Positions 6,467-54,391 are shown, numbered from the stretch's first letter. The stretch is 64,000 nt of DNA from Mycobacterium sp. (GCA_021732005.1 JAKFVT010000043.1:606-64605); one strand, 5' to 3'. Notes: generated from the sequence alone by a model not told the origin. Program-made: numbers and translations.

Positions 6467-7702
6467 TTACCTGCCGCGCACCGGCCTGCGATTAATGGCA
6501 CGCGCCACCATGATCAGTGAGAACACCACCAGCGTGCCGACCACCCCGACGCCCACCCGCACCGGCACCGCGTCCGCCGCGGGGAGTAGCTGGGTGCCGC
6601 TGGCTTTGATCGCGGCGGCTTCATCCGGCTTGGGCGGCAGCAGCGATGGATCCGGGTCGATCAGGTTCCCGATCCGGGTTCCGGGCGGGGTGGCGAAGCC
6701 GTAGTCGAGCAGATGCGCGGCCTGTTGCCACGGCGGGATCGGCTGCCGGGTGCCGCGCATCAGCACCGCCACCAGCCGGCGGCCGTCGCGGTTGGCGGCG
6801 CCGACGAACGTCTGTCCGGCATCGTCGGTGTAACCCGTCTTGCCACCGAGCGCGCCCGGATAGTTGTAGAGCAGCTGGTTGTCGTTCTCCAGCTGGTAGC
6901 CGGGATGGTCACCGTCTTCTCCCGGCTTCGCCGGATGCCCGGGGAAGTCGTACTTCTGGGTCGCGACGATGCTCGCGAAAGTGGGGTTCTCCCAGGCGTA
7001 GCGGTAGAACAGGCCGATGTCGTAGGCCGACGTGCTCATGCCCGGCCCGTCCAGACCGGACGGTGTCGCCGCGCGGGTGTCCTGGCCGCCGAGCTTGCGG
7101 GCCAGCGTGTTGATCTTCTGCAGGGCGGTGTCCATGCCGCCGACCTGTGCGGCCAGCGCGTGCGCGGCGTCGTTGCCGGAATGCATCAGCAGGCCGTGCA
7201 ACAGGTCGTTGACGGTGTACTTGCCGCCCTCGTCCACGCCCACCCGGGTGCCTTCGGCGTTGGCGTCGTCCTGGGTGCCTGCGACGATCTTGTTGAGCGG
7301 CAGTTCGTTCATGGCCTGCATCGCGATGAGGACCTTGATGATGCTGGCGGGTCGGTGCCGGGCGTGTGGATCGCGTGCGGCGATGATGTCGCCGGTGTCG
7401 AGGTCGGCCACCACCCACGATTCGGCCGAGATGTCGTCGGGGACCGGCGGTGTGCCCGCCGCGACGATCACTCCGCATCCCGCCAGCGCGTCGCCGCCCA
7501 CCGGCTTGGCAGGAACGGGAAGCGGTTGCGGTGGGTCGCCTGCCTGGGGCACCTCAGAGGAGTCGACGGCAGGCGGGGTGGTCACCCGGTAGGGGCACGT
7601 GTTGGGGTCCGGGTCCGCCCACGCGGTCGCCGACGTGCCGACGACGCACAGCGTCGCGGCCACCGCGGCAGCACACCGCGTGAAGAGTTTCGAGCTCGCC
7701 AT
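6467..7702 (-). CDS. dacB1: D-alanyl-D-alanine carboxypeptidase (peptidase S11, DacB1/Rv3330-like)
   Basis: PASIIK (SxxK), SGN (SxN), KTG motifs; signal peptide; C-terminal TM anchor. ATG 7702 has TACTCT 8 nt upstream. Confidence 0.9.
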
Positions 7703-7769: not shown

Positions 7770-8762
7770 TTACAAATCGAGACACGCGACGGCCGACGAC
7801 CCGATGCAGCCCAGCCACAGGGTGCCGTCATGCTCCACGAGCCCGGTGGCCAGCGCGAACCGCGGATCGACGGTCCGCAGCTGCGACGTCACCGTGCCGT
7901 CGAGATCAATCGATATCGCCCACACCACCGGCTTGGGGCTGGGCAGCCAACCGTAGGGCAGTCGCCACATCAGCCGGCGCACCACCGGAGCGCGCGGAGC
8001 CAGCCATTCGCCGACCGCGTTGCGTTCGCTGACCAACGCGACCCAGATACGTCCGTCGGGGGCCGTCGAGATGTTGTCCGGATAGCCGGGCAGGTGCTCG
8101 ATCAGCGGCACCGGCTCGCCGATACCCGAACCCGTCAGCGGGTACTTCGACACCCGGCAGGCCGTCGTCTCGGCGACCACCAGGGCCGACTCGTCGGCGG
8201 TCAGCGTCACCCCGTTGGCGAAGCGCAGTCCACTGGCCAGCGTCGTCACGGTGCCGTCGACGTCCCGGCGGAACAGTGACCCGCTGGGCCGGGCCTCGAG
8301 TACGGCGCCCTTGTAGTACTCGTAGTGGAAGCGCGACGTCGACTCGGTGAAAAAGATTGTGCCGTCTGATGATTCGACGACATTGCTGCAGAACGTCAAC
8401 GGCCGTCCGGCCACTTCGCTCACCAGGGTCTCGAATGAGCCGGTGGCCGGATCGAGGCGCAGCAGCCCACGGTGGCTGTCGCAGATCAGCAGCCTGCCGT
8501 CTCGGGCAACCGTCAGCCCGAGTGGTCGGCCGCCGGTGTTGGCCACCACCTCGGGGGCGTGGCCTTTCCGGATCCGCACGATCGCCCCGTTGTCGGTTCC
8601 GGTCCAGAGCGTGCCGTCAGCGTCGACCACGACGTCCTCGGGAGCATGACCTGGGACACCGATCACCCGCAGCGACCCGGACAGATCCGGCGGTGGCAGT
8701 CGCCGAAGGGGAGGCGGCTGCCACCGCACGGGATCGATCGGGGGTTTGGCGGCCCCGGTCAC
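7770..8762 (-). CDS. SMP-30/gluconolactonase/strictosidine-synthase-like beta-propeller protein
   Basis: PEDVVVD, GRPLGL, FANGV, GYPDNI motifs; GTG overlaps the aminotransferase stop. Confidence 0.85.
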
Positions 8763-22061: not shown

Positions 22062-23650
22062 TCGACACCGTCCAGAAGCTGTTGCGCACTCGCGTGGACG
22101 ATGACTCCGTCGCGGTGATCTCACCGGAACGCACCTGGACGTGGCGCGAGTACCTGGCCGACGCCGCAGCCGAGGCCTCCGCACTTATGGCTCTTGTCGA
22201 TCCGGCACGGCCGAGACACGTCGGTGCGCTGATGACGAATTCGCCGGCCTACGTGCGGGCGATGGCGGCCGCCGCGCTCGGCGGCTATGTGCTGTGCGGT
22301 ATCAACACCACTCGCCGCGGTGAGGGCCTGATGTCGGACATCACCCGCTCGGATTGCCAGCTGCTACTGGTCGACGACGACCATGCCCCGTTGATCGAAG
22401 GACTGGACCTCTCGGGCGTCACCGTGCTGAACGTGGCAGGCCCGCGCTACACCGAAGCCGTGGGAAGAGCGAAACCGCTTGTGCCGCATGAGGTCGCCGG
22501 TACCGATCCGTTCATGATGATCTTCACCTCCGGCACCAGCGGCAACCCCAAGGCGGTGCCCTTCGTCCACACGATGAGCGTGATGTGCGGTCTGAGCCTG
22601 GTGGCTCAGATGGACATCACCGCCGAGGACGTGTGCTACCTCGCGATGCCGCTGTTCCACTCCAATGGGGTGGCCGTCGGCTTCTCGGTCGCGGTCACCG
22701 CCGGAGCGGCGATGGTGCCAGTGAAGTTCTCGGTGTCACGGTTGCTGCCGGATCTACGCCACTACGGCGTGACCTTCATGAACTACGTCGGTAAGCCGCT
22801 GGCGCTGGTGCTGGCCACCCCCGAGCAGCCCGACGATGCCGACAACCCGCTGCGCATCATGTACGGCAACGAGGCCACCGAACGCGACATCGCGGAATTC
22901 TCACGGCGTTTCGGCTGCCGCATCATCGACGGCTTCGGCTCCAGCGAGTTCGCCGTCGTTGTAGTCCGCGAGGACGGCACCCCGCCCGGCTCGATCGGCA
23001 AGGGCTGGGGTGGGGTGTCGATCTATGATCCCGATACCGTGACCGAGTGTGCCACCGCAGTTTTCGACGACAGCGGCGCCCTGGTCAATGCCGACGACGC
23101 GGTCGGGGAGTTGGTCAACACCACCGGCTCCGGACCGTTCACCGGCTACTACAACGACCCGGCGGCCACCTCCGAGCGGCTCCGGCACGGCATGTACTGG
23201 ACCGGTGACCTCGCCTACCGCGACGCTGACGGCTGGATCTATCTCGCCGGCCGGACGTCGGACTGGATGCGGGTCGACGGGGAGAACATGGCGGCCGCAC
23301 CGATCGAGCGGATCATGTTGCGGCTGCCGCAACTCAACCAGGTCGCGGTGTACGCCGTGCCCGACGAGCGGGTGGGTGATCAGGTGATGGCGGCAATTGT
23401 TCTGCGCCACGGCCAGTCGGTCACTCCTGGGGAGCTCGAGGAGTTTCTGGCCGCCCAGCCCGATCTGTCGCCGAAGGCTTGGCCGAGGTTCGTCCGCATC
23501 AACGACGATCTGCCACAGACCGCCACCAACAAGATCCTCAAGCGGGAACTGAGCGCCGCAGGTGTGACCGCCGGTGGCGGCGTGCTGTGGGAGCGCGAAC
23601 CGCGCGAGACCAGCTACCGGGTCAGCGCGCGAACATCAACGCGCGCTTGA
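22058..23650 (+). CDS. Acyl-CoA synthetase (FadD1/FadD17-like)
   Basis: IFTSGTSGNPKAV, MPLFHSN, DGFGSSE, YWTGDL, GRTSDWMRVDGEN. Confidence 0.9.
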   Translation: MIDTVQKLLRTRVDDDSVAVISPERTWTWREYLADAAAEASALMALVDPARPRHVGALMTNSPAYVRAMAAAALGGYVLCGINTTRRGEGLMSDITRSDCQLLLVDDDHAPLIEGLDLSGVTVLNVAGPRYTEAVGRAKPLVPHEVAGTDPFMMIFTSGTSGNPKAVPFVHTMSVMCGLSLVAQMDITAEDVCYLAMPLFHSNGVAVGFSVAVTAGAAMVPVKFSVSRLLPDLRHYGVTFMNYVGKPLALVLATPEQPDDADNPLRIMYGNEATERDIAEFSRRFGCRIIDGFGSSEFAVVVVREDGTPPGSIGKGWGGVSIYDPDTVTECATAVFDDSGALVNADDAVGELVNTTGSGPFTGYYNDPAATSERLRHGMYWTGDLAYRDADGWIYLAGRTSDWMRVDGENMAAAPIERIMLRLPQLNQVAVYAVPDERVGDQVMAAIVLRHGQSVTPGELEEFLAAQPDLSPKAWPRFVRINDDLPQTATNKILKRELSAAGVTAGGGVLWEREPRETSYRVSARTSTRA

Positions 23651-24425
23651 CCTCCTGGATGGCCTTCGTGACCTCGATGCCGCGTGGGCAGGCGTCGGTG
23701 CAGTTGAACGTGGTGCGGCAGCGCCAGACTCCGTCGACGTCGTTGAGGATGTCGAGGCGCTCGGCGGCGCCCTCGTCGCGGCTGTCGAAGATGAACCGGT
23801 GCGCGTTCACGATCGCGGCAGGCCCGAAGTACGACCCTTCGCTCCAGTACACCGGGCAGCTGGTGGTGCAGCACGCGCACAGGATGCACTTGGTGGTGTC
23901 GTCGTAGCGGGCGCGGTCGGTCGGGCTCTGAATACGTTCCCGGGTGGGCGCATTACCCGAGGTGATCAGGTAGGGCTTGACCGCGCGGTAGGCGTCGAAG
24001 AACGGCTCCATGTTGACCACCAAGTCCTTCTCCACGGCCAGGCCGCGGATCGGCTCGATGGTGATGGTGAGTGGCTTGTCCTTAGGAGCGGAGCCCGCGG
24101 AGCGACCACGGGCCGGGGCTGGGAGCAGGTCGCGCATCAGCACCTTGCAGGCCAGCCGGTTGACGCCGTTGATCCGCATCGCATCCGACCCGCACACCCC
24201 GTGGGCGCAGGAGCGGCGGAAGGTCAGCGTGCCGTCCAGGTAGCTCTTCACATAGATCAGCAGGTTCAGCAGGCGGTCGCTCGGCAGACACGGCACCCGG
24301 AAGCTCTGGTAGCCGGCGCTGTCGGGATCCTCCGGGTTGAACCGCGCGATCTTCAGCGTCACCATCACGGCCCCGTCCGGAATCGGCGGCAGGGCGGGCT
24401 CTTTAACGTCAGGTGCGATCGTCAT
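23622..24425 (-). CDS. sdhB: Succinate dehydrogenase iron-sulfur subunit (Sdh2)
   Basis: RSCAHGVCGSDA, CILCACCTTSCP, CRTTFNCTDACP. Confidence 0.97.
   Translation of the reverse strand: MTIAPDVKEPALPPIPDGAVMVTLKIARFNPEDPDSAGYQSFRVPCLPSDRLLNLLIYVKSYLDGTLTFRRSCAHGVCGSDAMRINGVNRLACKVLMRDLLPAPARGRSAGSAPKDKPLTITIEPIRGLAVEKDLVVNMEPFFDAYRAVKPYLITSGNAPTRERIQSPTDRARYDDTTKCILCACCTTSCPVYWSEGSYFGPAAIVNAHRFIFDSRDEGAAERLDILNDVDGVWRCRTTFNCTDACPRGIEVTKAIQEVKRALMFAR
24084..24119 (-). repeat. ~36-nt in-frame insertion in sdhB (APARGRSAGSAP), related to the deoA insertion
   Basis: Coding strand CCCGTGGTCGCTCCGCGGGCTCCGCTCCT versus deoA CCCGGGTCGCTGCGCTCCT. Boundaries approximate. Confidence 0.55.
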
Positions 24426-26179
24426 CAGTACTTGCGCTCCATCGGCTCGTAACGGGTCTGCACGACGGGCTTGTAGTCCAGTCGGATGTCGCTGAGTAGA
24501 TCCGAACCTTCCTTGTACGCCATCGTGTGCCGCATGTAGTTGGTGTCGTCGCGGTTGGGGTAGTCCTCCCGGGCGTGGCCGCCGCGGGATTCCTTGCGGT
24601 TCAACGCGCCGACGACGGTCACCTCGGCCAGCTCCAGCAGGAAGCCCAGCTCGATGGCCTCGAGCAGGTCGCTGTTGTACCGCTTTCCCTTGTCGTGCAC
24701 GCTGATTCGGGCGTAGCGCTCCTTGAGGGAATGGATGTCGGTGAGTGCCTGCTTGAGGGTCTCCTCGGTGCGGAACACCGCGGCGTTGTTGTCCATCGAC
24801 TGCTGCAGTGCACTGCGGATGTCGGCCACCCGCTCGTTGCCGTGCTCGCTGAGGATGTCGGAGACCCAGTTGACGACCATGCCGGCCGGCTGCTCGGGCA
24901 GGTCGACGAAATCGTGGCCGAGGGCGTAGTTGGCGGCCGAGATCCCGGCGCGACGGCCGAAGACGTTGATATCCAGCAGCGAGTTGGTGCCCAGGCGGTT
25001 GGCTCCGTGCACCGACACGCACGCGCATTCGCCCGCTGCGTAGAGACCGGGCACGGTGGTGTTGTTGTCCCGCAACACCTGTCCGGTGATCGTGGTCGGG
25101 ATGCCGCCCATCACGTAGTGGCAGGTGGGGTAGACCGGCACCAGTTCCTTGACCGGATCCACGCCGAGATAGGTGCGGGCGAACTCGGTGATGTCGGGCA
25201 GCTTGGCTTCCAGAACATCCGCGCCGAGGTGGCGGACGTCGATGTAGACGTAGTCCTTGTGCGGTCCGGCGCCGCGGCCCTCCAGCACCTCGAGAACCAT
25301 CGAGCGGGCGACGATGTCGCGTGGCGCCAGGTCGACGATGGTGGGGGCGTAGCGCTCCATGAAGCGCTCGCCTTCGCCATTGAGCAACCGGCCGCCCTCG
25401 CCGCGGACGGCTTCGGAGATGAGAATCCCCAAGCCGGCCAGGCCGGTCGGGTGGAACTGGTGAAACTCCATGTCCTCCAAGGGAAGACCCTTGCGGAAGA
25501 TGATGCCCAGGCCGTCGCCGGTCAGCGTGTGGGCGTTGGAGGTCGTCTTGTACATCCGGCCCGAGCCACCGGTGGCGAACACGATGGCCTTGGCGTGGAA
25601 GACGTGGATGTCGCCGGTGGCGAGTTCGTACGCCACCACACCGCTGGCCACCGGCCCGCTGGGGGTCTCGGTCAGCACCAGGTCGAGGGCATAGAACTCG
25701 TTGAAGAACTCCACATCATGCTTGACGCAGTTTTGGTACAGCGTCTGCAGGATCATGTGGCCGGTGCGGTCGGCGGCGTAGCACGCCCGGCGCACCGGAG
25801 CCTTGCCGTGATCGCGGGTATGCCCGCCGAAGCGGCGCTGGTCGATGCGTCCCTCCGGGGTGCGGTTGAACGGCATGCCCATCTTCTCGAGATCGAGCAC
25901 CGCGTCGATGGCTTCCTTGCACATGATCTCGACGGCGTCCTGGTCGGCGAGGTAGTCGCCGCCCTTGACCGTGTCGAAGGTGTGCCACTCCCAGTTGTCC
26001 TCTTCGACATTGGCCAGCGCGGCGCACATGCCGCCCTGGGCGGCACCGGTGTGCGATCGGGTGGGGTACAGCTTGGTCAGCACCGCGGTCCGCGCCCGGG
26101 GGCCGGCTTCGACGGCGGCGCGCATGCCGGCCCCGCCTGCCCCGACGATGACCACGTCGTAGCGGTGTTCGGTAATCAT
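24425..26179 (-). CDS. sdhA: Succinate dehydrogenase flavoprotein subunit (Sdh2)
   Basis: GAGGAG, RSHTGAAQGG (FAD-His), QFHPTG, HYVMGG, HGANRLGTNSL. Confidence 0.98.
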   Translation of the reverse strand: MITEHRYDVVIVGAGGAGMRAAVEAGPRARTAVLTKLYPTRSHTGAAQGGMCAALANVEEDNWEWHTFDTVKGGDYLADQDAVEIMCKEAIDAVLDLEKMGMPFNRTPEGRIDQRRFGGHTRDHGKAPVRRACYAADRTGHMILQTLYQNCVKHDVEFFNEFYALDLVLTETPSGPVASGVVAYELATGDIHVFHAKAIVFATGGSGRMYKTTSNAHTLTGDGLGIIFRKGLPLEDMEFHQFHPTGLAGLGILISEAVRGEGGRLLNGEGERFMERYAPTIVDLAPRDIVARSMVLEVLEGRGAGPHKDYVYIDVRHLGADVLEAKLPDITEFARTYLGVDPVKELVPVYPTCHYVMGGIPTTITGQVLRDNNTTVPGLYAAGECACVSVHGANRLGTNSLLDINVFGRRAGISAANYALGHDFVDLPEQPAGMVVNWVSDILSEHGNERVADIRSALQQSMDNNAAVFRTEETLKQALTDIHSLKERYARISVHDKGKRYNSDLLEAIELGFLLELAEVTVVGALNRKESRGGHAREDYPNRDDTNYMRHTMAYKEGSDLLSDIRLDYKPVVQTRYEPMERKY

Positions 26180-26197
26180 TTTCGCCTCGAAGTGCTT

Positions 26198-26659
26198 CTA
26201 GGAGATGTTGGGATTGAAGGTGAGCAGGACGTAGGTGCCCACCACCAACGTGATGAGCATCGAGATCACCAGCAGGGAGTTCAGCCAGAACTTGGTGGAG
26301 TCCTTGCGGGCGTAGTCGCCGATGATCGTGCGGATCCCGTTGCCGCCGTGCAGTTGAGCCAGCCACAGCAGCAGCAGGTCCCAGGTCTGCCAGAACGGCG
26401 AGGCCCAGCGCTGGGCGACGTAGTTGAAGTCGATCCGATAGACGCCGCCGTCCCACATCAGCCCGATGAAAAGGTGACCGAGCGCCAGGAAGATCAGGAC
26501 GACGCCGGAGAACCGCATGAACAGCCACGCGTACTTCTCGAAGTTCGGCATGCCGGACCGCCGCCGCGGGGCGCGCGGGTTGTCCAGGCCGGCCGGGCGG
26601 TCGTGGGTGCGTTCCATGATCGGAGCGGGCGGTCCCAGCCGGCTCTCGGGCGCGCTCAC
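26198..26659 (-). CDS. sdhD: Succinate dehydrogenase hydrophobic anchor subunit
   Basis: NFEKYAWLFMRFSG, LHGGNG; GTG overlaps the sdhC stop. Confidence 0.93.
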   Translation of the reverse strand: MSAPESRLGPPAPIMERTHDRPAGLDNPRAPRRRSGMPNFEKYAWLFMRFSGVVLIFLALGHLFIGLMWDGGVYRIDFNYVAQRWASPFWQTWDLLLLWLAQLHGGNGIRTIIGDYARKDSTKFWLNSLLVISMLITLVVGTYVLLTFNPNIS

Positions 26660-27078
26660 AGGAACCGCTCCGCCATGTGCATGCCGATGATCACCAGGGA
26701 AGGCACCATCACCAGCAGCCAGACCGCGGCCACACCCCACAGCATCTGCCGCTGATAGCGGGGGCCCTTCCACCAGAAGTCGATCAGGATGATCCGCACG
26801 CCGTTGAGTGCGTGATACAGCAGCGCGGCCACCAGGCCGATCTCCATCAGACCGATGATCGGCGTCTTGTAGGTCTCGACGACCTCGTTGTAGGCCTGCG
26901 GGCTGACCCGTACCAACGCGGTGTCCAGGACGTGGACGAAGAGGAAGAAGAAGATCGTGGTTCCGGTGATGCGATGCAGCACCCACGACCACATTCCGGG
27001 GTCACCGCGGTAAAGGGTGCGCCGTCGCCTCGTCGACTTGTCGCGCGGGGCCGGCACGACCGGTGCCGCTGTACTCAT
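26656..27078 (-). CDS. sdhC: Succinate dehydrogenase cytochrome b556 subunit
   Basis: GMWSWVLHRITG, YHALNGVR. Confidence 0.95.
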   Translation of the reverse strand: MSTAAPVVPAPRDKSTRRRRTLYRGDPGMWSWVLHRITGTTIFFFLFVHVLDTALVRVSPQAYNEVVETYKTPIIGLMEIGLVAALLYHALNGVRIILIDFWWKGPRYQRQMLWGVAAVWLLVMVPSLVIIGMHMAERFL

Positions 27079-27261
27079 TCAGCGCCTCCAACACCATCGT
27101 TGCGTTATGGATTGGACTCTAACTCCGTTTGTACGGTCAAAAGAATTACGGTGCAGGGACAAGATGCGGCTTTTCGGCCTATTCGGCCGGTGCGGCCGGT
27201 GGGTGACAAGCGGGGCGAGGCGGTTGGTGAATGCATTCAGTACGGGTGTGGTGCGTGACGC

Positions 27262-27675
27262 ATGACCACTGAGATCGAATGGAAATCGCTGCGCGACAAA
27301 GCAATCGAGGTTGCTGCTCGCGCCTATGCGCCGTACTCCGGATTCCCGGTCGGGGCTGCGGCGCTGGTCGATGACGGTCGCGTGGTCACCGGCTGCAATG
27401 TGGAGAATGTCTCATATGGCCTAGGTCTCTGTGCCGAGTGCGCGGTGGTCTGCGCATTGGTATCCGGCGGCGGCGGACGACTGCGGGCCGTGGCTGTCGT
27501 CGACGCCACCGGGGCCGCCCTGATGCCCTGCGGGCGATGTCGTCAACTGTTGCTCGAGCACGGTGGGCCGGAGTTGCTCGTCGATCACGCGGAGGGTCCG
27601 CGCCGGCTGGCCGAACTGTTGCCCGACGCGTTCGGCCCCGCTGACCTGGCCCGGGTGGAACGGGAAAAGCCGTGA
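27262..27675 (+). CDS. cdd: Cytidine deaminase
   Basis: AYAPYSGFPVGAA, CAE, PCGRCRQ. Confidence 0.95.
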   Translation: MTTEIEWKSLRDKAIEVAARAYAPYSGFPVGAAALVDDGRVVTGCNVENVSYGLGLCAECAVVCALVSGGGGRLRAVAVVDATGAALMPCGRCRQLLLEHGGPELLVDHAEGPRRLAELLPDAFGPADLARVEREKP

Positions 27676-28994
27676 CGCAGTTCACATTCGACGCGCCGAC
27701 GGTCATCCGGGTCAAACGAGACGGCGGCCGGTTGAGCGACGAGGCCATCGATTGGGTGATCGACGCCTACACCCATGGCAGGGTCGCCGACGAACAGATG
27801 TCGGCGCTGCTGATGGCGATCTTCCTGCGCGGGATGGATCGCGGCGAGATCTCCCGGTGGACTTTCGCGATGATCGCCTCGGGCGAGCGCCTGGACTTCA
27901 GCGATCTGGGCCGCCCCACGGTGGACAAACATTCGACCGGCGGTGTGGGCGACAAGATCACCATTCCGCTGGTGCCCGTCATCGCCGCCTGCGGTGCGGC
28001 GGTTCCGCAGGCCGCGGGCCGGGGACTCGGGCACACCGGGGGCACCCTGGACAAGCTGGAATCGATTCCGGGGTTCACTGCCGAGATTTCCAAAGCCCAA
28101 GTGCGCCAGCAGTTGTCCGAGATCGGTGCGGCGATATTCGCCGCCGGCGAGCTGGCGCCCGCGGACCGGAAGATCTACGCGCTGCGGGATGTCACCGGCA
28201 CGGTGGAGTCGCTGCCGTTGATCGCCAGCTCGGTGATGAGCAAGAAGCTGGCCGAAGGTGCCGGCGCGCTGGTGCTCGACGTGAAGGTCGGCCGCGGTGC
28301 CTTCTTGAAAACGGAAGAGGAGTCGAGGGAACTGGCGGCCACCATGGTGGAGCTGGGCCTGGCCCACGGGGTGCCGACCGTTGCCGTCCTGACCGATATG
28401 GACGTCCCACTCGGGCGTACGGTCGGCAATGCCCTGGAGGTCGCCGAGTCACTGGAGGTGCTGGCCGGCGGTGGACCCGACGACGTCGTTGAGCTGACGG
28501 TCCGGCTGGCGGGGGAGATGCTGGCGCTTGCCGGGATCGACGGTCGCGATCCGGCCGAGACCCTGCGCGACGGCACCGCGATGGATCGTTTCCGCGCGCT
28601 GGTCACCGCGCAGGGCGGCGACGTTCACGCACAGCTTCCGATCGGTGCCCATTCCGAGACCGTGCCGGCACCGCGAGGCGGCACAATGGGTGACATCGAC
28701 GCATTGGCGATGGGGCTTGCCGTCTGGCGACTCGGCGCGGGCCGGGCCGCCCCGGGTCAGCCTGTGCAATTCGGCGCCGGCGTGCGCATCCACCGCAGGC
28801 CCGGCGAGCCGGTCAGCGCGGGTGAGCCGCTGTTCACCCTCTACACCGACACCCCGGAGCGGATCCCCGCCGCGATGGGTGAGTTGGACGGTGCCTTCTC
28901 CGTCGTCGACGTGCCGCCGGAATCTCTTCCCGGGTCGCTGCGCTCCTGCCCGCCGAGGCCACGCCCGCTCATCATCGATCGGATCGCCCGATGA
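27672..28994 (+). CDS. deoA: Thymidine phosphorylase
   Basis: [36 protein letters not shown]. Confidence 0.95.
28914..28955 (+). repeat. 36-nt in-frame insertion near the deoA 3' end, bracketed by a CCGCCG direct repeat
   Basis: CCGCCG at 28914-28919 and 28950-28955; the insert adds [12 protein letters not shown]. Confidence 0.6.
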
Positions 28995-38486: not shown

Positions 38487-39974
38487 ATGCGACTAGCGGC
38501 TCGCAGCGCGGCGGTGGCGGCGGCCACCCTGGCAGCATTCTTGTCCTTGGTTCTCCTGTCGACATCGACAGCGGCCCTCAAGCTCCTCGCAAGTGGCGCA
38601 ACGGTTCTCGTGATGGGCGGAACCGGGCACTCGTTGTCGCCGGACGAGGACACCAATCAGTTCGTCCAGGACTACATGGCCAGCGCGCTCGGCAACTACG
38701 TCGCGCCCGCGTCGACGCTGGGCACCGGCGTCCCCGGCGGCCCGTACAACGCGGTCGCCGTCATCACCCCGGAACAGTCCGCGCCGAACAACGGCACGTT
38801 GACGTTCGATCAGTCGGTGGCGCTGGGCAGGCAGAATCTCGACAACTGCATCAAGGCGACGTCATCGTGCAGCTACAACGACCAGGTGGGATCCGTCGCT
38901 CCGACTCCCGGCGACACGTTCGTCGTCTACGGCTTCTCGCAGAGCTCGACGATCTCGACCCTCGAAAAGCGGGCGCTGGCAGCCGAATACGCACCCGGTG
39001 AGGGCCCCGACGTCAGCTTCGTGCTGACCGCCAACGGCAACCGCCCGAACGGTGGATTCCTCGCCCGCGGGCCCGAGGGCGTCACGATCCCGGTGGGCCT
39101 GCCGTTCGGCGGGTCGACGTTCAACGGACCCACCCCGACCGACACCCAATACGACACGACCGACATCGCCGCGCAGTACGACGGCTGGTCGGATTTCCCG
39201 GTCAACCCGCTGAACCTGCTGGCCGTGGCCAACGCGATGATGGGCGTCGACTACCTGCATCTCGGCGGCAGCTACGACAACACCACGCTCACCGATCCGG
39301 GCGTGGTCGATCAGGGCCAGTACGGCGACACCCACTACTACCTGATCTCCACCCCGGTGCTTCCGCTGCTGATGCCGCTGGAGAAGCTCGGGCCGCTGGG
39401 CCATGCGTTCGCCGACACCTTGGACGCGCCGCTGCGGGTGATCATCGAGTCTTCGTACGACCGCACCACCAGCCCAGGTGTGCCGACGTCGTGGAACGTC
39501 ACGTACTTCCCGAACCCGGTGAAATTCGCCCGCAACCTGATCGTCTCGATCCCCACGGGCTGGGACAACGGCATCCAGGACCTCACCGGCAAGCGCCCGT
39601 TCGGCACGACCCGGCCCGGACCCTACGGAGTCGGCGGTCCTGACGTCACCTACACCACCCCGGATACCACCTCGGATTCGTCGAGCGCGGCGGCAACCAC
39701 TGAGACCACCGCGGTGGCCGCCACGGAGCCGACTGTGAAAAAGGCGACGGCCGGCGTCAGGCCGCGCATGACGGCGACTACTACGACGGCCACCACCACG
39801 CCGACGACGAAGACCGCAGCCGCCGCCGCGACCGGCGGCAAGGACACGTCGTCCAAGGACACGTCGTCCAAGTCGACTAAGTCCTCGACGTCCTCGACGT
39901 CCTCGACGTCCACGCACAACAACGGTGTCGGCGGCTCCAAGCGAGCCAAGGCGAGCGCCGGCTCCAGCAGCTAG
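38487..39974 (+). CDS. Secreted PE-PPE-domain (cutinase-like serine hydrolase/acyltransferase) protein with S/T/K-rich tail
   Basis: Signal peptide, VMGGTG, GFSQS nucleophile, GNRPNGG, QYDGWSDFP..PLNLLAVANA; GGGGAG RBS. Confidence 0.88.
   Translation: MRLAARSAAVAAATLAAFLSLVLLSTSTAALKLLASGATVLVMGGTGHSLSPDEDTNQFVQDYMASALGNYVAPASTLGTGVPGGPYNAVAVITPEQSAPNNGTLTFDQSVALGRQNLDNCIKATSSCSYNDQVGSVAPTPGDTFVVYGFSQSSTISTLEKRALAAEYAPGEGPDVSFVLTANGNRPNGGFLARGPEGVTIPVGLPFGGSTFNGPTPTDTQYDTTDIAAQYDGWSDFPVNPLNLLAVANAMMGVDYLHLGGSYDNTTLTDPGVVDQGQYGDTHYYLISTPVLPLLMPLEKLGPLGHAFADTLDAPLRVIIESSYDRTTSPGVPTSWNVTYFPNPVKFARNLIVSIPTGWDNGIQDLTGKRPFGTTRPGPYGVGGPDVTYTTPDTTSDSSSAAATTETTAVAATEPTVKKATAGVRPRMTATTTTATTTPTTKTAAAAATGGKDTSSKDTSSKSTKSSTSSTSSTSTHNNGVGGSKRAKASAGSSS
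39840..39908 (+). repeat. Short in-frame tandem repeats in the PE-PPE tail
   Basis: AAGGACACGTCGTCC x2 (39840-39869) and TCCTCGACG x3 (39882-39908). Confidence 0.85.
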
Positions 39975-49803: not shown

Positions 49804-50286
49804 CTAGCCGCTGCCGTGCCCCGGGCCGACGTTGCTCGCGGGCCGGGTGCGCAGGTCGTGCACGTACTCGTCGGGCGCGCCGGCGATCTCGGCGGCGTCG
49901 GCCATCACACCGATGTAACGCGCCGACGGAAGCCCGCCCTCCCAGGCGTCCAGCACATACAGCCAGGCGAGTACGGGATCGGTTGTGGTGTCCGTCGATT
50001 CGCATTCGATGCGACATCTGATCTTCTTGTGGAAGCCGAGCTCGGAGCCTTCCCAGCGGTCCAGGTTCGCCTCGTCGGCGGGCGTCATGTCGTAGAGCAC
50101 CACGAACACCTTGGAGTCGGGGTCCTCGACCAGGGTCGCCAGCGCGCCTTCCCAGCCGATGTCCTCCCCGGCGAAGGTCAGCCGCCAGCCGTGCAGCCAG
50201 CCGGTTCCGGCCATCGGGGAGTGCGGCGCACGCTCCAGCATCTGCTCGGGATGCATGTTGGATCCATAAGCGGCGTAGAGCGGCAC
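49804..50286 (-). CDS. Gamma-glutamylcyclotransferase family protein (Rv3304-like)
   Basis: YAAYGSNM, LDRWEG; TAGGCT -10 six nt before the GTG. Confidence 0.9.
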   Translation of the reverse strand: MPLYAAYGSNMHPEQMLERAPHSPMAGTGWLHGWRLTFAGEDIGWEGALATLVEDPDSKVFVVLYDMTPADEANLDRWEGSELGFHKKIRCRIECESTDTTTDPVLAWLYVLDAWEGGLPSARYIGVMADAAEIAGAPDEYVHDLRTRPASNVGPGHGSG

Positions 50287-50349
50287 GGGGAAAGCCTAGA
50301 GCGTCCTGTCGCAGAGAGCGCAGGGACTGGGTCAACTAGCCTTATGCCC

Positions 50350-51765
50350 GTGACGACGCGGATCGTGATCATCGGTGGGGGGCCGGCCGGCTACGAGGCG
50401 GCACTGGTCGCCGCGGGTCGCGGCCGGGACGTCGCCGAGGTCACCGTGGTCGACTCCGACGGCATCGGTGGTGCCTGCGTGCTCTTCGACTGCGTGCCGT
50501 CCAAGACGTTCATCGCCTCGACCGGGGTTCGCACCGAACTGCGCCGCGCCTCGGGCCTGGGATTCGAGATCGGCATCGACGACGCCAAGATCTCGCTGCC
50601 CGACATCAACAACCGCGTCAAGACCCTGGCCCGCTCGCAGTCCGCCGACATCGGTACCCAGCTGCTGCGCGAGAAGGTCAACGTCGTGCAGGGCCACGGC
50701 GAACTGATCGACGCGGTCCCCGGCATGGCGCGCCACCGGGTGAAGGTCACCACCACCTCCGGCCAGGTCGGCGTGCTCAAGGCCGACGTCGTGCTGATCG
50801 CCACCGGCGCCAGCCCCCGCGTCTTGCCCAATGCGGTGCCCGACGGCGAGCGGATTCTGACCTGGCGCCAGCTCTACGACCTGCCCGAGCTGCCCAAGCA
50901 TCTGGTGATCGTCGGCTCCGGCGTCACCGGAGCCGAGTTCTGCAACGCCTACACCGAACTGGGCGTCGACGTCACCGTCGTCGCCAGCCGCGACCAGATC
51001 CTGCCGCACGAGGACAGCGACGCCGCGGCGGTGCTGGAGGACACCTTCGCCGAGCGCGGCGTGACGCTGGTCAAGAACGCCAGGGCCGACTCGGTGGTCA
51101 GCACCGGTACCGGTGTCACCGTCACGATGGCCGACGGCCGTGTCGTCGAGGGCAGCCACGCCCTGATGACGGTCGGATCGGTGCCGAACACGTCGGGCCT
51201 GGGCCTGGATCGCGTCGGCATCGAGCTCGGTCCCGGCAACTATCTGCCGGTGGACCGGGTGTCGCGGACCTCGGCGGCCGGGATCTACGCCGCCGGCGAC
51301 TGCACGGGGCTGCTGCCGCTGGCCTCGGTCGCGGCCATGCAGGGCCGCATTGCCATGTATCACGCACTGGGTGAAGGGGTGGCCCCGATCCGGCTGCGCA
51401 CGGTCGCCTCGGCCACGTTCACCCGACCCGAGATCGCCGCCGTCGGCGTGCCGCAAACCGCGATCGACAGCGGGTCGGTCCCGGCCAGGACCCTGATGTT
51501 GCCGCTGACGACCAACGCCCGCGCCAAGATGTCGCTGCTCAAGCGCGGCTTCGTCAAGATCTTCTGCCGTCCCGCCACCGGGGTCGTCATCGGCGGTGTT
51601 GTGGTCGCGCCGATCGCCTCCGAATTGATCCTGCCGATCGCCCTGGCGGTGCAAAACCGCATCTCGGTGACCGATCTGGCGCAGACGTTGTCGGTGTACC
51701 CGTCGCTGTCCGGGTCGATCGTCGAGGCTGCGCGCCGCCTGATGGCCCACGACGATCTCGACTAG
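50350..51765 (+). CDS. lpdA: NAD(P)H-quinone dehydrogenase, LpdA flavoprotein disulfide reductase family
   Basis: GGGPAG, GGACVLFDCVPSK, GSGVTGAE, YAAGD, YPSLSGS. Start GTG 50350 (TAGCCT -10) or ATG 50344. Confidence 0.9.
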   Translation: MTTRIVIIGGGPAGYEAALVAAGRGRDVAEVTVVDSDGIGGACVLFDCVPSKTFIASTGVRTELRRASGLGFEIGIDDAKISLPDINNRVKTLARSQSADIGTQLLREKVNVVQGHGELIDAVPGMARHRVKVTTTSGQVGVLKADVVLIATGASPRVLPNAVPDGERILTWRQLYDLPELPKHLVIVGSGVTGAEFCNAYTELGVDVTVVASRDQILPHEDSDAAAVLEDTFAERGVTLVKNARADSVVSTGTGVTVTMADGRVVEGSHALMTVGSVPNTSGLGLDRVGIELGPGNYLPVDRVSRTSAAGIYAAGDCTGLLPLASVAAMQGRIAMYHALGEGVAPIRLRTVASATFTRPEIAAVGVPQTAIDSGSVPARTLMLPLTTNARAKMSLLKRGFVKIFCRPATGVVIGGVVVAPIASELILPIALAVQNRISVTDLAQTLSVYPSLSGSIVEAARRLMAHDDLD

Positions 51766-51774
51766 CCTGAGGTC

Positions 51775-53520
51775 ATGAGCGACCCGATCCTTCGACCGGG
51801 CACCGGTCAGACCTATCTCGGACCAACCGAGCGTGCGCACGCCTGGCAGCGGCTGGGCAGCGAACAGTTCGACGTCGTCGTCATCGGCGGCGGTGTGGTC
51901 GGTGCGGGCTGCGCACTGGATGCCGCGACCCGCGGGCTCAAAGTGGCCCTCGTCGAGGCGCGCGACTTCGCCTCGGGCACATCGAGCCGCAGTTCGAAGA
52001 TGTTCCACGGCGGTCTGCGCTACCTCGAGCAGTTGGAGTTCGGCCTCGTCCGTGAGGCACTGCACGAGCGTGAACTGTCCCTGACAACGCTGGCGCCACA
52101 TCTGGTCAAGCCGCTGCCGTTCCTGTTCCCGCTGACCAAGAGGGTCTGGGAGCGGCCGTACATCGCGGCGGGCATTTTCCTCTACGACCAGCTCGGCGGG
52201 TCGAAATCCGTTCCGGCGCAAAAACATTTGACGAAGTCCGGTGCGCTGCGACTGGCGCCGGGCCTCAAGCGCAGCTCGCTGATCGGCGGGATCCGCTACT
52301 ACGACACCGTCGTCGACGACGCCCGGCACACCATGACGGTCGCCCGCACCGCTGCGCACTACGGCGCCGTGGTGCGCACCTCGACCCAGGTGGTCTCGCT
52401 GCTGCGGGAGGGCGACCGGGTGATCGGGGTGAAGATCCGGGACTCCGAGGACGGCGAGGTGGAGGACGTCCGCGGTCACGTCGTGATCAACGCGACCGGG
52501 GTGTGGACCGACGAGATCCAGGCACTGTCAAAGGAACGTGGCCGCTTTCGGGTGCGGGCGTCCAAAGGCGTGCACGTCGTGGTGCCCCGGGATCGGATCG
52601 TGTCCGAGGTGGCGATCATCCTTCGCACCGAGAAGTCGGTGCTGTTCGTGATCCCGTGGGGCACGCACTGGATCATCGGCACCACCGACACCGACTGGAA
52701 CCTCGACCTCGCGCACCCGGCCGCGACGAAGGCCGACATCGACTACATCCTCGGCCACGTCAACACGGTGCTGGCCACGCCGCTCACGCACGACGACATC
52801 GACGGGGTGTACGCCGGCCTGCGGCCGCTGCTGGCCGGGGAGAGCGAAGAAACGTCCAAGCTGTCCCGTGAGCACGCCGTCGCGGTGCCGTCACCGGGCC
52901 TGGTCGCCATCGCCGGCGGCAAATACACCACGTATCGGGTGATGGCCGAGGACGCGGTCGACGCCGCCGCCGAGTACATCCCGGCGCGGGTGGCGCCGTC
53001 GATCACCGAGAAGGTGCCGTTGATGGGCGCCGACGGATACTTCGCGCTGGTCAATCAGACTCAGAGTGTGGGCGCTGGGTACGGGCTGCATCCGTACCGG
53101 GTGCGGCACCTGCTGGATCGGTACGGCTCGCTGATCGGCGACGTGCTGGCGCTGGCCGCCGACAAGCCGGAACTGCTCGATCCGATCACCGACGCGCCGG
53201 TCTACCTGAAGGTGGAGGCCGCCTACGCCGCGTCCGCCGAAGGGGCATTGCACCTGGAGGACATCCTGGCCCGGCGGATGCGGATCTCGATCGAGTACCC
53301 GCACCGCGGCGTGGACTGCGCCCGCGAGGTCGCGGAGGTTGTCGCCCCGATCCTCGGATGGAGTCAGGACGACATCGACCGCGAGGTGGACACCTATCTG
53401 GCGCGGGTGGAGGCGGAGATCCTTTCGCAGGCTCAGCCCGACGACGAGTCCGCCGATGCCCTGCGGGCGTCGGCACCCGAGGCCCGGGCCGAGATCCTCG
53501 AACCGGTGCCGTTGAACTGA
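51775..53520 (+). CDS. glpD: FAD-dependent glycerol-3-phosphate dehydrogenase (GlpD2-like)
   Basis: IGGGVVG, GTSSRSSKMFHGGLRYL, AGLRPL, GGKYTTYR. Confidence 0.95.
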   Translation: MSDPILRPGTGQTYLGPTERAHAWQRLGSEQFDVVVIGGGVVGAGCALDAATRGLKVALVEARDFASGTSSRSSKMFHGGLRYLEQLEFGLVREALHERELSLTTLAPHLVKPLPFLFPLTKRVWERPYIAAGIFLYDQLGGSKSVPAQKHLTKSGALRLAPGLKRSSLIGGIRYYDTVVDDARHTMTVARTAAHYGAVVRTSTQVVSLLREGDRVIGVKIRDSEDGEVEDVRGHVVINATGVWTDEIQALSKERGRFRVRASKGVHVVVPRDRIVSEVAIILRTEKSVLFVIPWGTHWIIGTTDTDWNLDLAHPAATKADIDYILGHVNTVLATPLTHDDIDGVYAGLRPLLAGESEETSKLSREHAVAVPSPGLVAIAGGKYTTYRVMAEDAVDAAAEYIPARVAPSITEKVPLMGADGYFALVNQTQSVGAGYGLHPYRVRHLLDRYGSLIGDVLALAADKPELLDPITDAPVYLKVEAAYAASAEGALHLEDILARRMRISIEYPHRGVDCAREVAEVVAPILGWSQDDIDREVDTYLARVEAEILSQAQPDDESADALRASAPEARAEILEPVPLN

Positions 53521-53527
53521 GCGAGCA

Positions 53528-54391
53528 TTGAGGCGCCGTCGCCCGGCTCCGCTCCCAGATCGCGACGGGATTGGTCCGGCGCGGGTGCGGTTGCGCGGCG
53601 GTGCGGTACTGGTGGAATTGGCGGACCGATTCGGTGAAGCTGCCGCGCAGAAGGTATTCGACGGGGAAGTGGTCGACGCCTCCGGCGACGTCATCACCCC
53701 GGCCACGGTGTTACCGCCCGGCGCGCACGTGTACCTGTATCGGGAGCTGCCCGACGAGGTGGTGGTGCCGTTCGACATCCCGGTGCTCTACCGCGACGAC
53801 GACATCGTGGTGGTCGACAAGCCGCATTTCCTGGCCACCATGCCGCGCGGCGGGCATGTCGCGCAAACGGCGTTGGTGCGGCTGCGTCGTTCGCTCGATC
53901 TGCCGGAATTGAGCCCGGCGCATCGGCTGGACCGGCTGACCGCAGGAGTGCTGCTGTTCACCGTCCGGCGTGAGGTCCGCGGCGCTTATCAGACGTTGTT
54001 CGCGCGTGGCGAGGTGTCGAAGACTTATCTGGCGCGCTCCTCGGCGCCACCGCGCGTTGAGCTCCCCGTGGTGTTGCGTAGTCGAATAATCAAGCAGCGC
54101 AGTCATTTACAGGCCGTCGAGGAACCGGGCGAGCCGAACGCCGAGACTCTGGTCGAGGCGTTGGGGGACGGCCGATATCAGCTGACTCCGCGCACTGGGC
54201 GCACCCATCAGTTGCGGGTGCACATGGCCTCGCTGGGTCTGCCGATCGACAACGATCCGCTCTATCCGCGGATCGTCGAGGTGGCGGCCGACGATTTCTC
54301 CGCCCCGCTGCAGCTGGTGGCGCAGCGGCTGGAGTTCGACGATCCGCTGTCGAGAGAGCCGCGGTCGTTCGTCAGCTCAGCGCAGCTGTAG
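53528..54391 (+). CDS. RluA-family pseudouridine synthase (Rv3300c-like)
   Basis: VVDKPHFL, HRLDRLTAG (catalytic Asp), TGRTHQLRVH. Confidence 0.9.
   Translation: MRRRRPAPLPDRDGIGPARVRLRGGAVLVELADRFGEAAAQKVFDGEVVDASGDVITPATVLPPGAHVYLYRELPDEVVVPFDIPVLYRDDDIVVVDKPHFLATMPRGGHVAQTALVRLRRSLDLPELSPAHRLDRLTAGVLLFTVRREVRGAYQTLFARGEVSKTYLARSSAPPRVELPVVLRSRIIKQRSHLQAVEEPGEPNAETLVEALGDGRYQLTPRTGRTHQLRVHMASLGLPIDNDPLYPRIVEVAADDFSAPLQLVAQRLEFDDPLSREPRSFVSSAQL

Follow-up and report, generated by a model that had tools for sequence, protein, structure and literature searches.

Repetitive extragenic palindromic sequences (REPs) are imperfect palindromes of approximately 35 bp that lie outside genes and are mobilized by RAYT transposases. 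MITEs (miniature inverted-repeat transposable elements), such as Correia and NEMIS, carry terminal inverted repeats and target-site duplications, and some of them are occasionally fused in frame to genes. Rickettsia palindromic elements (RPEs) are palindromic and roughly 100–150 bp long. They insert in frame into protein genes (Ogata et al. 2000, cited in PMC3184786). The same review describes mycobacterial interspersed repetitive units (MIRUs; Supply et al. 1997) as units of 40–100 bp that are intergenic within operons and co-oriented with genes, have inverted repeats (imperfect, both at the ends and internally) as well as direct repeats of 4 nt, are compatible with open reading frames (ORFs), and occur both dispersed and in tandem, their route of spreading being unknown (PMC3184786). 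Here we report that in a 64-kb stretch of Mycobacterium sp. DNA (JAKFVT010000043.1:606-64605, hereafter the window, meaning the whole stretch) the thymidine phosphorylase gene deoA has recently gained one unit of a 36-bp interspersed repeat that is not palindromic and is widespread in environmental mycobacteria. A second in-frame insertion, in the succinate dehydrogenase gene sdhB, most likely stems from an earlier insertion of this repeat or of a sister repeat; it has since been rearranged, and the protein now retains it.

By analogy with these systems, the repeat behaves like a short MIRU-type minisatellite with the outcome of an RPE in proteins. Similar to MIRUs, it is hosted by Mycobacteriaceae, occurs dispersed and in head-to-tail arrays of variable number, is co-oriented with flanking genes and is compatible with ORFs. 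By contrast, its unit and array period are exactly 36 bp rather than 40–100 bp, many of its copies are intragenic and use all three frames, in contrast to the intergenic location described for MIRUs, and the inverted repeats and 4-nt direct repeats of MIRUs are not seen in the unit. Like RPEs, it is a short repeat found in frame in housekeeping genes, where it adds a peptide at tolerated places and is read in different frames; an earlier note on this DNA, made from the sequence alone, had drawn this parallel, and it holds for the outcome at the protein level. However, RPEs are palindromic, longer, alphaproteobacterial and without tandem arrays, whereas the 36-bp unit is unstructured, array-forming and found in Actinomycetota. 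The unit also resembles coding minisatellites, or variable-number tandem repeats, in having a length that is a multiple of three, a head-to-tail arrangement and a copy number that varies between close relatives (as in ImuB), but an ordinary coding minisatellite stays within one gene, whereas the 36-bp unit arises de novo in all frames at many unrelated loci.

A recent single-unit insertion in deoA

The window is a mycobacterial chromosome segment with a GC content of about 68%. It belongs to a 66-kb contig that is present in full in two drinking-water metagenome runs (X1 and X2), and we compared it with reference loci and metagenome contigs, that is, with genome fragments. Its closest named genome is Mycolicibacterium aromaticivorans JS19b1 (L081), at 93.7% nucleotide identity over approximately 16 kb. 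The window deoA gene (27672–28994, plus strand) encodes a thymidine/pyrimidine-nucleoside phosphorylase of 440 amino acids with PDB homologues at E values of 1e-104 to 1e-78. In frame near its 3′ end, this gene contains one 36-nt repeat unit (28920–28955, plus strand) with the sequence G AATCT CT T CCC G GGTCGCTGCGCTCCTGCCCGCCG, which codes for 12 residues. DNA alignment places a single clean 36-nt gap in every relative, and in all the insert is missing from about 75 orthologues. The empty site in M. aromaticivorans reads GACGAG CCGCCG AACCCACGCCCG, and the filled site in the window reads GACGTG CCGCCG GAATCTCTTCCCGGGTCGCTGCGCTCCTGCCCGCCG (insert) AGGCCACGCCCG (flank). The single CCGCCG of the empty site is the native hexamer at the insertion point (28914–28919, plus strand) and is identical to the 3′ end of the unit, and CCGCCG borders the new sequence on both sides, confirming the 36-nt insert with a CCGCCG duplication that the earlier note had described.

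The window DeoA ends in ...VVDVPP, the 12 inserted residues (residues 418–429) and 12 more residues. The insert falls within the variable tail at the C terminus, and 36 nt separate it from a stop codon that overlaps the start codon of add. Alignment with Escherichia coli thymidine phosphorylase pairs query residues 6–423 with chain residues 2–435 of 440; the insert thus starts at the very end of the conserved fold. The extra 12 residues are found in 0 of 69 orthologues from Mycobacteriales species genomes, in which the corresponding stretch consists of five residues and the C-terminal consensus is SV(G/V)D-x2-P-x2-RPLIIDRI. DeoA is 428–433 amino acids long in the six closest relatives.

An assembly artefact is ruled out as the source of the deoA insert, because Logan contigs assembled independently from the two runs span it with 0 differences. 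Contig depth over 28926–28955 climbs from 15 to 96 in X1 and to 194 in X2, and a second contig from the source runs, at the same single-copy depth, contains 28924–28957 with 2 differences between unrelated flanks; the deoA core is therefore multi-copy in the source metagenome, in which several unitigs of 31–33 nt also cover it. The downstream flank of the second copy (X1 record 2 / X2 record 7), …CCCGCTCGTAGAACGCCA, resembles the flanks of units in two other contigs (L171 and L192), and this copy seems to occupy a site common to several related genomes. A template for the deoA insert within the window was rejected: the best candidate, at 8668–8694, matches in part only and has diverged too far to have served as the donor.

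A 36-bp repeat family with fixed period and no palindrome

An exact search of public metagenome contigs with the 23-nt core of the repeat, GGTCGCTSCGCTCCTGCCCGCCG, matched at least 120 contigs, and these contigs were then scanned for units with at most 6 mismatches in 27 nt. All counts of units, sites and orientations given below are counts among the matches listed. The unit consensus is 5′-G N5 AT Y CCC S GGTCGCT S CGCTCCTGCCCGCCG-3′, that is, a G, five variable bases, AT, Y, CCC, S and the 23-nt core, making 36 nt with 31 conserved and 5 variable positions. The looser scan returned 107 single units; head-to-tail arrays with a period of 36 came in sizes of two units (12 arrays), three units (12) and four units (9). 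Inside any one array the five variable bases stay constant, and between loci they differ. With extra copies in the source metagenome and in at least 120 contigs elsewhere, the absence of further copies, which the earlier note would have taken as a refutation, is decisively ruled out. The deoA insert matches the family core at 27 of 27 positions with 0 mismatches, has CT at the consensus AT, and is scored by the family profile at an E value of 4e-8. In L025, a metagenome-assembled genome (MAG) of another Mycobacterium, an exact 36-nt in-frame insertion follows codon 3 of an aldehyde dehydrogenase gene and is missing from three orthologues; it is identical to the deoA insert at 25 of the last 27 nt, in the same 36-nt register.

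No stop codon occurs in the conserved block in any of 48 frames (six frames, all consensus variants). Because the unit is 12 codons long and this block is stop-free in all six frames, its insertion adds a 12-residue loop without breaking the gene. The resulting loops are rich in Gly, Arg, Ser, Ala and Pro.

The earlier note had proposed a REP- or MITE-like element, and this part of its interpretation fails. The unit is small and multi-copy, as the non-coding REPs and MITEs are, and is similar in size to REPs, but it has no palindrome, terminal inverted repeats or regular target-site duplication. Folding of the unit and its dimer, on both strands, was no better than that of shuffled sequences (z 0.02 to 1.56), terminal inverted repeats were not found in the unit, and the copies form head-to-tail arrays of period 36; a hairpin, REP or MITE structure was accordingly discarded. 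We also rejected a CRISPR array, because the array period equals the unit length (36) and leaves no spacers. The arrays had no match in Rfam. A three-unit array had no match among 72,556 plasmid records, and its only match among 50,697 phage records was a weak one to an Aeromonas phage (73% identity over 70% of the query), so that neither a plasmid nor a phage origin was retained.

An older insertion in sdhB

The minus strand of the window carries sdhC-sdhD-sdhA-sdhB, and its plus strand carries cdd-deoA-add. The sdhB gene (23622–24425, minus strand) encodes the 267-residue iron-sulfur subunit of succinate dehydrogenase (6LUM_B match, E 3e-154) and carries an insert, coding APARGRSAGSAP, at 24084–24119 (minus strand). 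The window protein reads LLP[APARGRSAGSA]PKDKPLTITIEP, the nearest species lacking the insert read LLPKKDKPLTITIEP, and SdhB/Sdh2 of M. smegmatis (PDB 6LUM_B) reads LPKN-PNKQLTITIEP, with the gap between chain residues 108 and 109. This site is a length-variable loop between the last [2Fe-2S] cysteine ligand (NRLAC) and the strand LTITIEP, and the segment measures 23 to 36 residues among 80 Mycobacteriales. The insert is present in M. aromaticivorans, M. sphagni, Mycobacterium sp. shizuoka-1, several MAGs and MiE-22, and is absent elsewhere.

In MiE-22, sdhB keeps the full 36 nt, with the preceding K still in place ahead of 12 new codons. The event must therefore have added 36 nt at first, and one AAG codon was later lost in the aromaticivorans clade. 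The earlier note had counted about 12 extra residues in SdhB: the insertion is real, but its net length is 33 nt in the window and 36 nt only ancestrally and in MiE-22. The orthologue alignments of both proteins uphold the broader point that the two segments are lineage-specific in-frame insertions. Six of the seven codons that vary in the sdhB insert across the clade differ only synonymously, which indicates purifying selection on the peptide. The sdhB insert is thus old, fixed in the M. aromaticivorans/M. sphagni clade and under purifying selection.

The link between the two insertions was originally drawn from a shared GGTCGCT(G/C)CGC. This string is present in both inserts, but it is weak by itself, with 2 matches in the window against 0.56 expected and at least 2 matches in 7 of 100 shuffles; a 19-mer put forward as a shared motif matches only itself in the window, even with 3 mismatches allowed. 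The relatedness of the deoA and sdhB inserts is meaningful only against the family consensus. Read against that consensus, the sdhB insert is composed of GGTCGCTCCGC (core positions 0–10), GG and GCTCCGCTCCT (core positions 4–14), whereas the background of family-core 11-mers is 8.8e-5 per nt in 1.64 Mb of Mycobacteriales DNA. The MiE-22 insert starts with GCTCCTGCCCG (core positions 9–19). The sdhB insert has the minority orientation, like those in deoA and L025.

These features suggest that the sdhB insert probably shares a common origin with the family, and several observations weigh against this conclusion. The insert shows no depth excess in runs X1 and X2, where it is single-copy, and the family profile search does not detect it. 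Its pieces are out of order relative to one unit, so that a 1-nt and a 9-nt indel are needed to align them, and it is without the GCCCGCCG tail. No sdhB-type variant was found among the family-rich contigs listed, and a candidate second subfamily has two partial matches, both in one Aldersonia locus. These are two strings near-identical to the sdhB insert core in Aldersonia kunmingensis (L062 19557–19580 and 16544–16560): GGTCGCTCCGCAGGCTCCGCTCCT is located in the C-terminal tail of an MFS transporter gene and CGCTCCGCGGGCTCCGC between convergent genes.

Alternatively, the insertions in deoA and sdhB could have nothing to do with each other: both would be ordinary lineage-specific indels of the signature-indel kind, and their shared string would have arisen by chance in GC-rich DNA. 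The insignificance of the shared 11-mer pattern alone speaks for this explanation, as do the single-copy state, age and profile-negative result of the sdhB insert and the fact that loop length at the sdhB position also varies in other mycobacteria. However, it is refuted for deoA, the insert of which belongs to a large family, and the sdhB insert combines two separate exact core 11-mers within 36 nt with an ancestral length of exactly 36 nt. In addition, only three indels of at least 3 nt separate the window from M. aromaticivorans over 18.6 kb, the deoA insert being the sole intragenic one; insertions of this kind are therefore rare. Overall, we regard unrelated indels as improbable, and the most likely origin of the sdhB segment remains an earlier insertion of this repeat or of a sister repeat.

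Location, orientation and hosts of the units

We classified sites by a GC3-based frame analysis. Approximately one-quarter of the classifiable sites among the matches listed lie inside coding sequences with the frame uninterrupted, and all three frames are used (10, 7 and 5 in-frame copies). Copies inside coding sequences number at least 24. The remaining sites are at gene boundaries, either at 5′ ends or just upstream, at extreme 3′ ends or in intergenic regions, and for the 3′-end copies the stop codon follows 1–14 nt past the unit. These results support the earlier note in reading the deoA insert as a copy of a small repeat that is inserted in frame; the repeat is dispersed, and its intragenic copies are read in different frames and sit mostly at termini and in loops.

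Orientation is strongly biased among the matches listed. At 33 sites the genes on either side are both oriented against the GGTCGCT strand, whereas at 6 sites both follow it, and inside coding sequences the ratio of opposite to along is 22 to 2. The usual coding-strand reading is CGGCGGGCAGGAGCGSAGCGACCSGGGGAT, which yields, depending on the frame, a 14-residue stretch plus (Q/E)RPGD, or AGRSAATGES. The deoA insert belongs to the minority, as the GGTCGCT strand is its coding strand.

Hosts of units include ImuB, polyketide synthase, methylmalonyl-CoA mutase, GcvT, MshA and MshD, as well as an SRAP peptidase (two units in two frames), the linker of an E2 acyltransferase and a formylglycine-generating enzyme. 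A tandem-peptide search added CBS, DinB, VOC, RimP, adenine phosphoribosyltransferase, GatC, Mce-associated and thioredoxin-family proteins. The named hosts all belong to the Mycobacteriaceae, among them two cultured strains, Mycobacterium sp. NBC_00419 (CP107931.1) and NPDC006124. The complete genome of NBC_00419 has a DinB-family gene with three units of the T-variant GGTCGCTTCGC; because this variant escaped our search pattern, the family is larger than sampled. In 1.7 Mb of reference loci from approximately 85 Mycobacteriales genomes, clear copies were found only in the window and in L025. The L039 MAG has a copy with three mismatches at the N terminus of SdhD.

DinB-family orthologues carry units in different frames at the position after CWTV, namely RRAGAERPGDEDS in L200 and a three-unit array in P0146 (sites compared in L200 and at L211 10129–10236), which suggests an insertion hot spot or independent events. 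In another contig, a four-unit array (L113 120–249 and 326–398) lies approximately 80 nt from a tRNA gene.

A possible half-unit, CCGCCG GATCT GT CC GGGTCGCTGCG, lies in the window itself at 8668–8694 (minus strand), in the N-terminal region of an ORF at 7770–8762 (minus strand), where it codes for 11 residues. It shares an exact 13-mer with the deoA unit; its assignment is uncertain, as its gapped local alignment score of 35 was reached by 2 of 100 shuffles and its profile score is insignificant.

Gain of exact units and a possible copying mechanism

Four independent filled/empty pairs document exact gains of 36 nt: deoA, the L025 aldehyde dehydrogenase gene, site A of ImuB and an intergenic region of the window and contig L112. 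ImuB orthologues that are 72–98% identical have 0 to 4 units at three positions, and one of these positions has 1, 3 or 4 units in proteins that are 93–98% identical. At ImuB site A, one empty allele and four filled alleles are separated at the DNA level by exactly 36 nt, and CGGCGG borders the insertion at either end. L112 is 83% identical to the window over 49810–54348 (approximately 4.6 kb) and contains a decayed unit with one perfect unit adjoining it. In the window, the decayed copy, TTGACCCAGTCCCTGCGCTCTCTGCGACAGG, lies in a divergent intergenic region (50305–50335, minus strand) and the perfect L112 unit is an exact 36-nt gap.

The junctions exclude two simple schemes. A mobile 23-nt core accompanied by a 13-nt target duplication was ruled out, as all 36 nt are absent from the empty sites of L025 and ImuB site A, and a generic 6-bp target-site duplication was ruled out, as the upstream hexamer is missing at most leftmost units. 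CCGCCG, with at most 1 mismatch, stands at the exact upstream register of 14 of 95 leftmost units, compared with approximately 2 at other offsets, an enrichment of about sevenfold. The variable part of the unit is weakly similar to its own downstream flank in a locus-specific manner (z approximately 3.6), for which decayed neighbouring units offer the simplest reading but not a full account.

Some alleles without a full unit, noted at site B of L091 (GWLTSRRAGKGG) and in the ImuB orthologues P0032 and P0026, resemble remnants. A CGGCGGGC that runs directly into GGGGAA looks like a unit that has lost its middle, and PGGISPG at site A is like a unit minus six residues. Units may thus decay by internal deletion.

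The explanation that we consider best overall, and probably correct, is that deoA received a recent insertion of the family, that sdhB carries an older one of the same or a sister repeat, and that the repeat spreads by homology-primed copying. In this mechanism, a whole 36-nt period would be copied from an existing copy into a new site, primed by short homology between the target and the CCGCCG end of the unit, through template switching or short-patch conversion during replication or repair. Arrays would then lengthen and shorten by slippage, like other minisatellites, and selection would retain copies at gene ends, between genes and in surface loops. We infer the homology-primed step because CCGCCG/CGGCGG is found once at the empty sites of deoA and ImuB site A and on both sides at the filled ones; the upstream enrichment of the hexamer and the perfect unit beside a decayed one in L112 lend it support.

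Several observations count against such copying as the whole explanation. The L025 target is without CCGCCG, and only about 15% of leftmost units among the matches listed have the hexamer, so that microhomology is either not obligatory or quickly decaying. The register common to the insertions in deoA and L025 is more easily reconciled with a discrete 36-nt entity whose ends are fixed than with switching at arbitrary points. A strand bias linked to transcription is not predicted by a pure repair model, and the occurrence of consensus-like new units across distant lineages hints at a conserved master template or an enzyme.

One way to accommodate these observations is mobilization in trans, by a dedicated enzyme such as a recombinase, transposase or HUH-type enzyme with its gene elsewhere in the genome, of a true non-autonomous element with defined ends. 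The identical register in deoA and L025, the high conservation of the 31-nt block over many lineages, the strong orientation bias and the occupation of one DinB-family position in two frames (L200 RRAGAERPGDEDS and the P0146 array) would all fit such an enzyme. On the other hand, the unit has no hairpin, terminal inverted repeat or regular target-site duplication, exact-period tandem arrays are atypical of transposition, and the plasmid and phage records searched gave no match and one weak match, respectively. To our knowledge, the unit is also shorter than any element bearing recognition sites for HUH or DDE transposases. We consider mobilization by a dedicated enzyme unlikely, although an enzyme acting in trans may still take part in the copying that we favour.

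Alternatively, a telomerase-like reverse transcriptase could write the units from a conserved RNA template, with the CCGCCG 3′ end pairing and exact periods being added. This would fit the exact period of the head-to-tail arrays, the addition of a consensus-perfect unit beside a decayed one in L112, the short homology at one junction and the near-identity of the core in diverged hosts. A single template, however, would not give variable positions that differ between loci and are constant within arrays, no RNA family matches the unit, and no reverse transcriptase gene was seen in the genome fragments at hand, making this alternative very improbable. It is quite unlikely that active machinery, whether an enzyme or an RNA-templated polymerase, writes a fixed 12-codon cassette, stop-free in all frames and oriented with transcription, into chromosomal genes of environmental Mycobacteriaceae and expands it there. 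If it did, the cassette would constitute a built-in generator of protein loops and coding-length variation, and the machinery might be the long-sought spreading route of MIRU-type repeats. Homology-primed copying from existing units remains our preferred explanation.

Relation to described repeats and implications

The core DNA strings and the encoded peptides are absent from 8.3 million open-access papers and preprints, keyword searches of that literature turned up no account of the repeat, and this 36-bp family of environmental Mycobacteriaceae is apparently undescribed. Aligned with the 53-bp unit of MIRU292 (PMC7977185), the repeat is identical at 22 of 29 positions, which include TCGCTGCGCT (shuffle p = 0.0175), but the consensus differs and the resemblance is too weak to establish homology. 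An isolate variant, GCAGGAGCGAAGCGA, resembles a PCR primer derived from an M. intracellulare repeat, GCAGAGCGAAGCGA. Taken as a comparison of sequences, these similarities are suggestive only of homology to MIRUs.

The family illustrates a route by which a bacterial genome can extend essential enzymes by 12-residue loops and leave them intact. Cases in point are thymidine phosphorylase, ImuB, methylmalonyl-CoA mutase, the mycothiol enzymes MshA and MshD and, probably, succinate dehydrogenase, and the number of loops varies between close strains. How MIRU-like repeats spread has been open since 1997, and the clean filled/empty pairs, together with the cultured, completely sequenced strain NBC_00419, make the question testable. 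The units also have practical consequences. They break short-read assemblies, as seen in runs X3 and X4, the contigs of which end at a unit; they inflate apparent protein divergence and create lineage-specific 'signature indels'; and they could serve as typing markers for environmental mycobacteria.

Other features of the locus

MiE-22 (L004, OZ248467.1), a Mycobacteriaceae bacterium with a 3.26-Mb chromosome, retains the sdhB insert, but a tblastn search of its locus (approximately 7040–7110) with the window DeoA gave no match, and alignment with the window is limited there to the start of add; the small size of this genome is suggestive of reduction. Two neighbouring perfect tandem repeats at window positions 39839–39911 (15 nt × 2.3 and 9 nt × 3.4) are unrelated to the 36-bp family. 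Compared with M. aromaticivorans, the window has an extra ACCGGCCGCA, a 10-nt indel at position 27200 in the sdhC–cdd intergenic region. Conversely, M. aromaticivorans has a 2173-nt segment directly downstream of sdhB (L081 10883–12970) that the window is without (at approximately 23622), and this segment encodes a 695-amino-acid gene product with Cadherin-like, Big_9, cellulase and Calx-beta domains.

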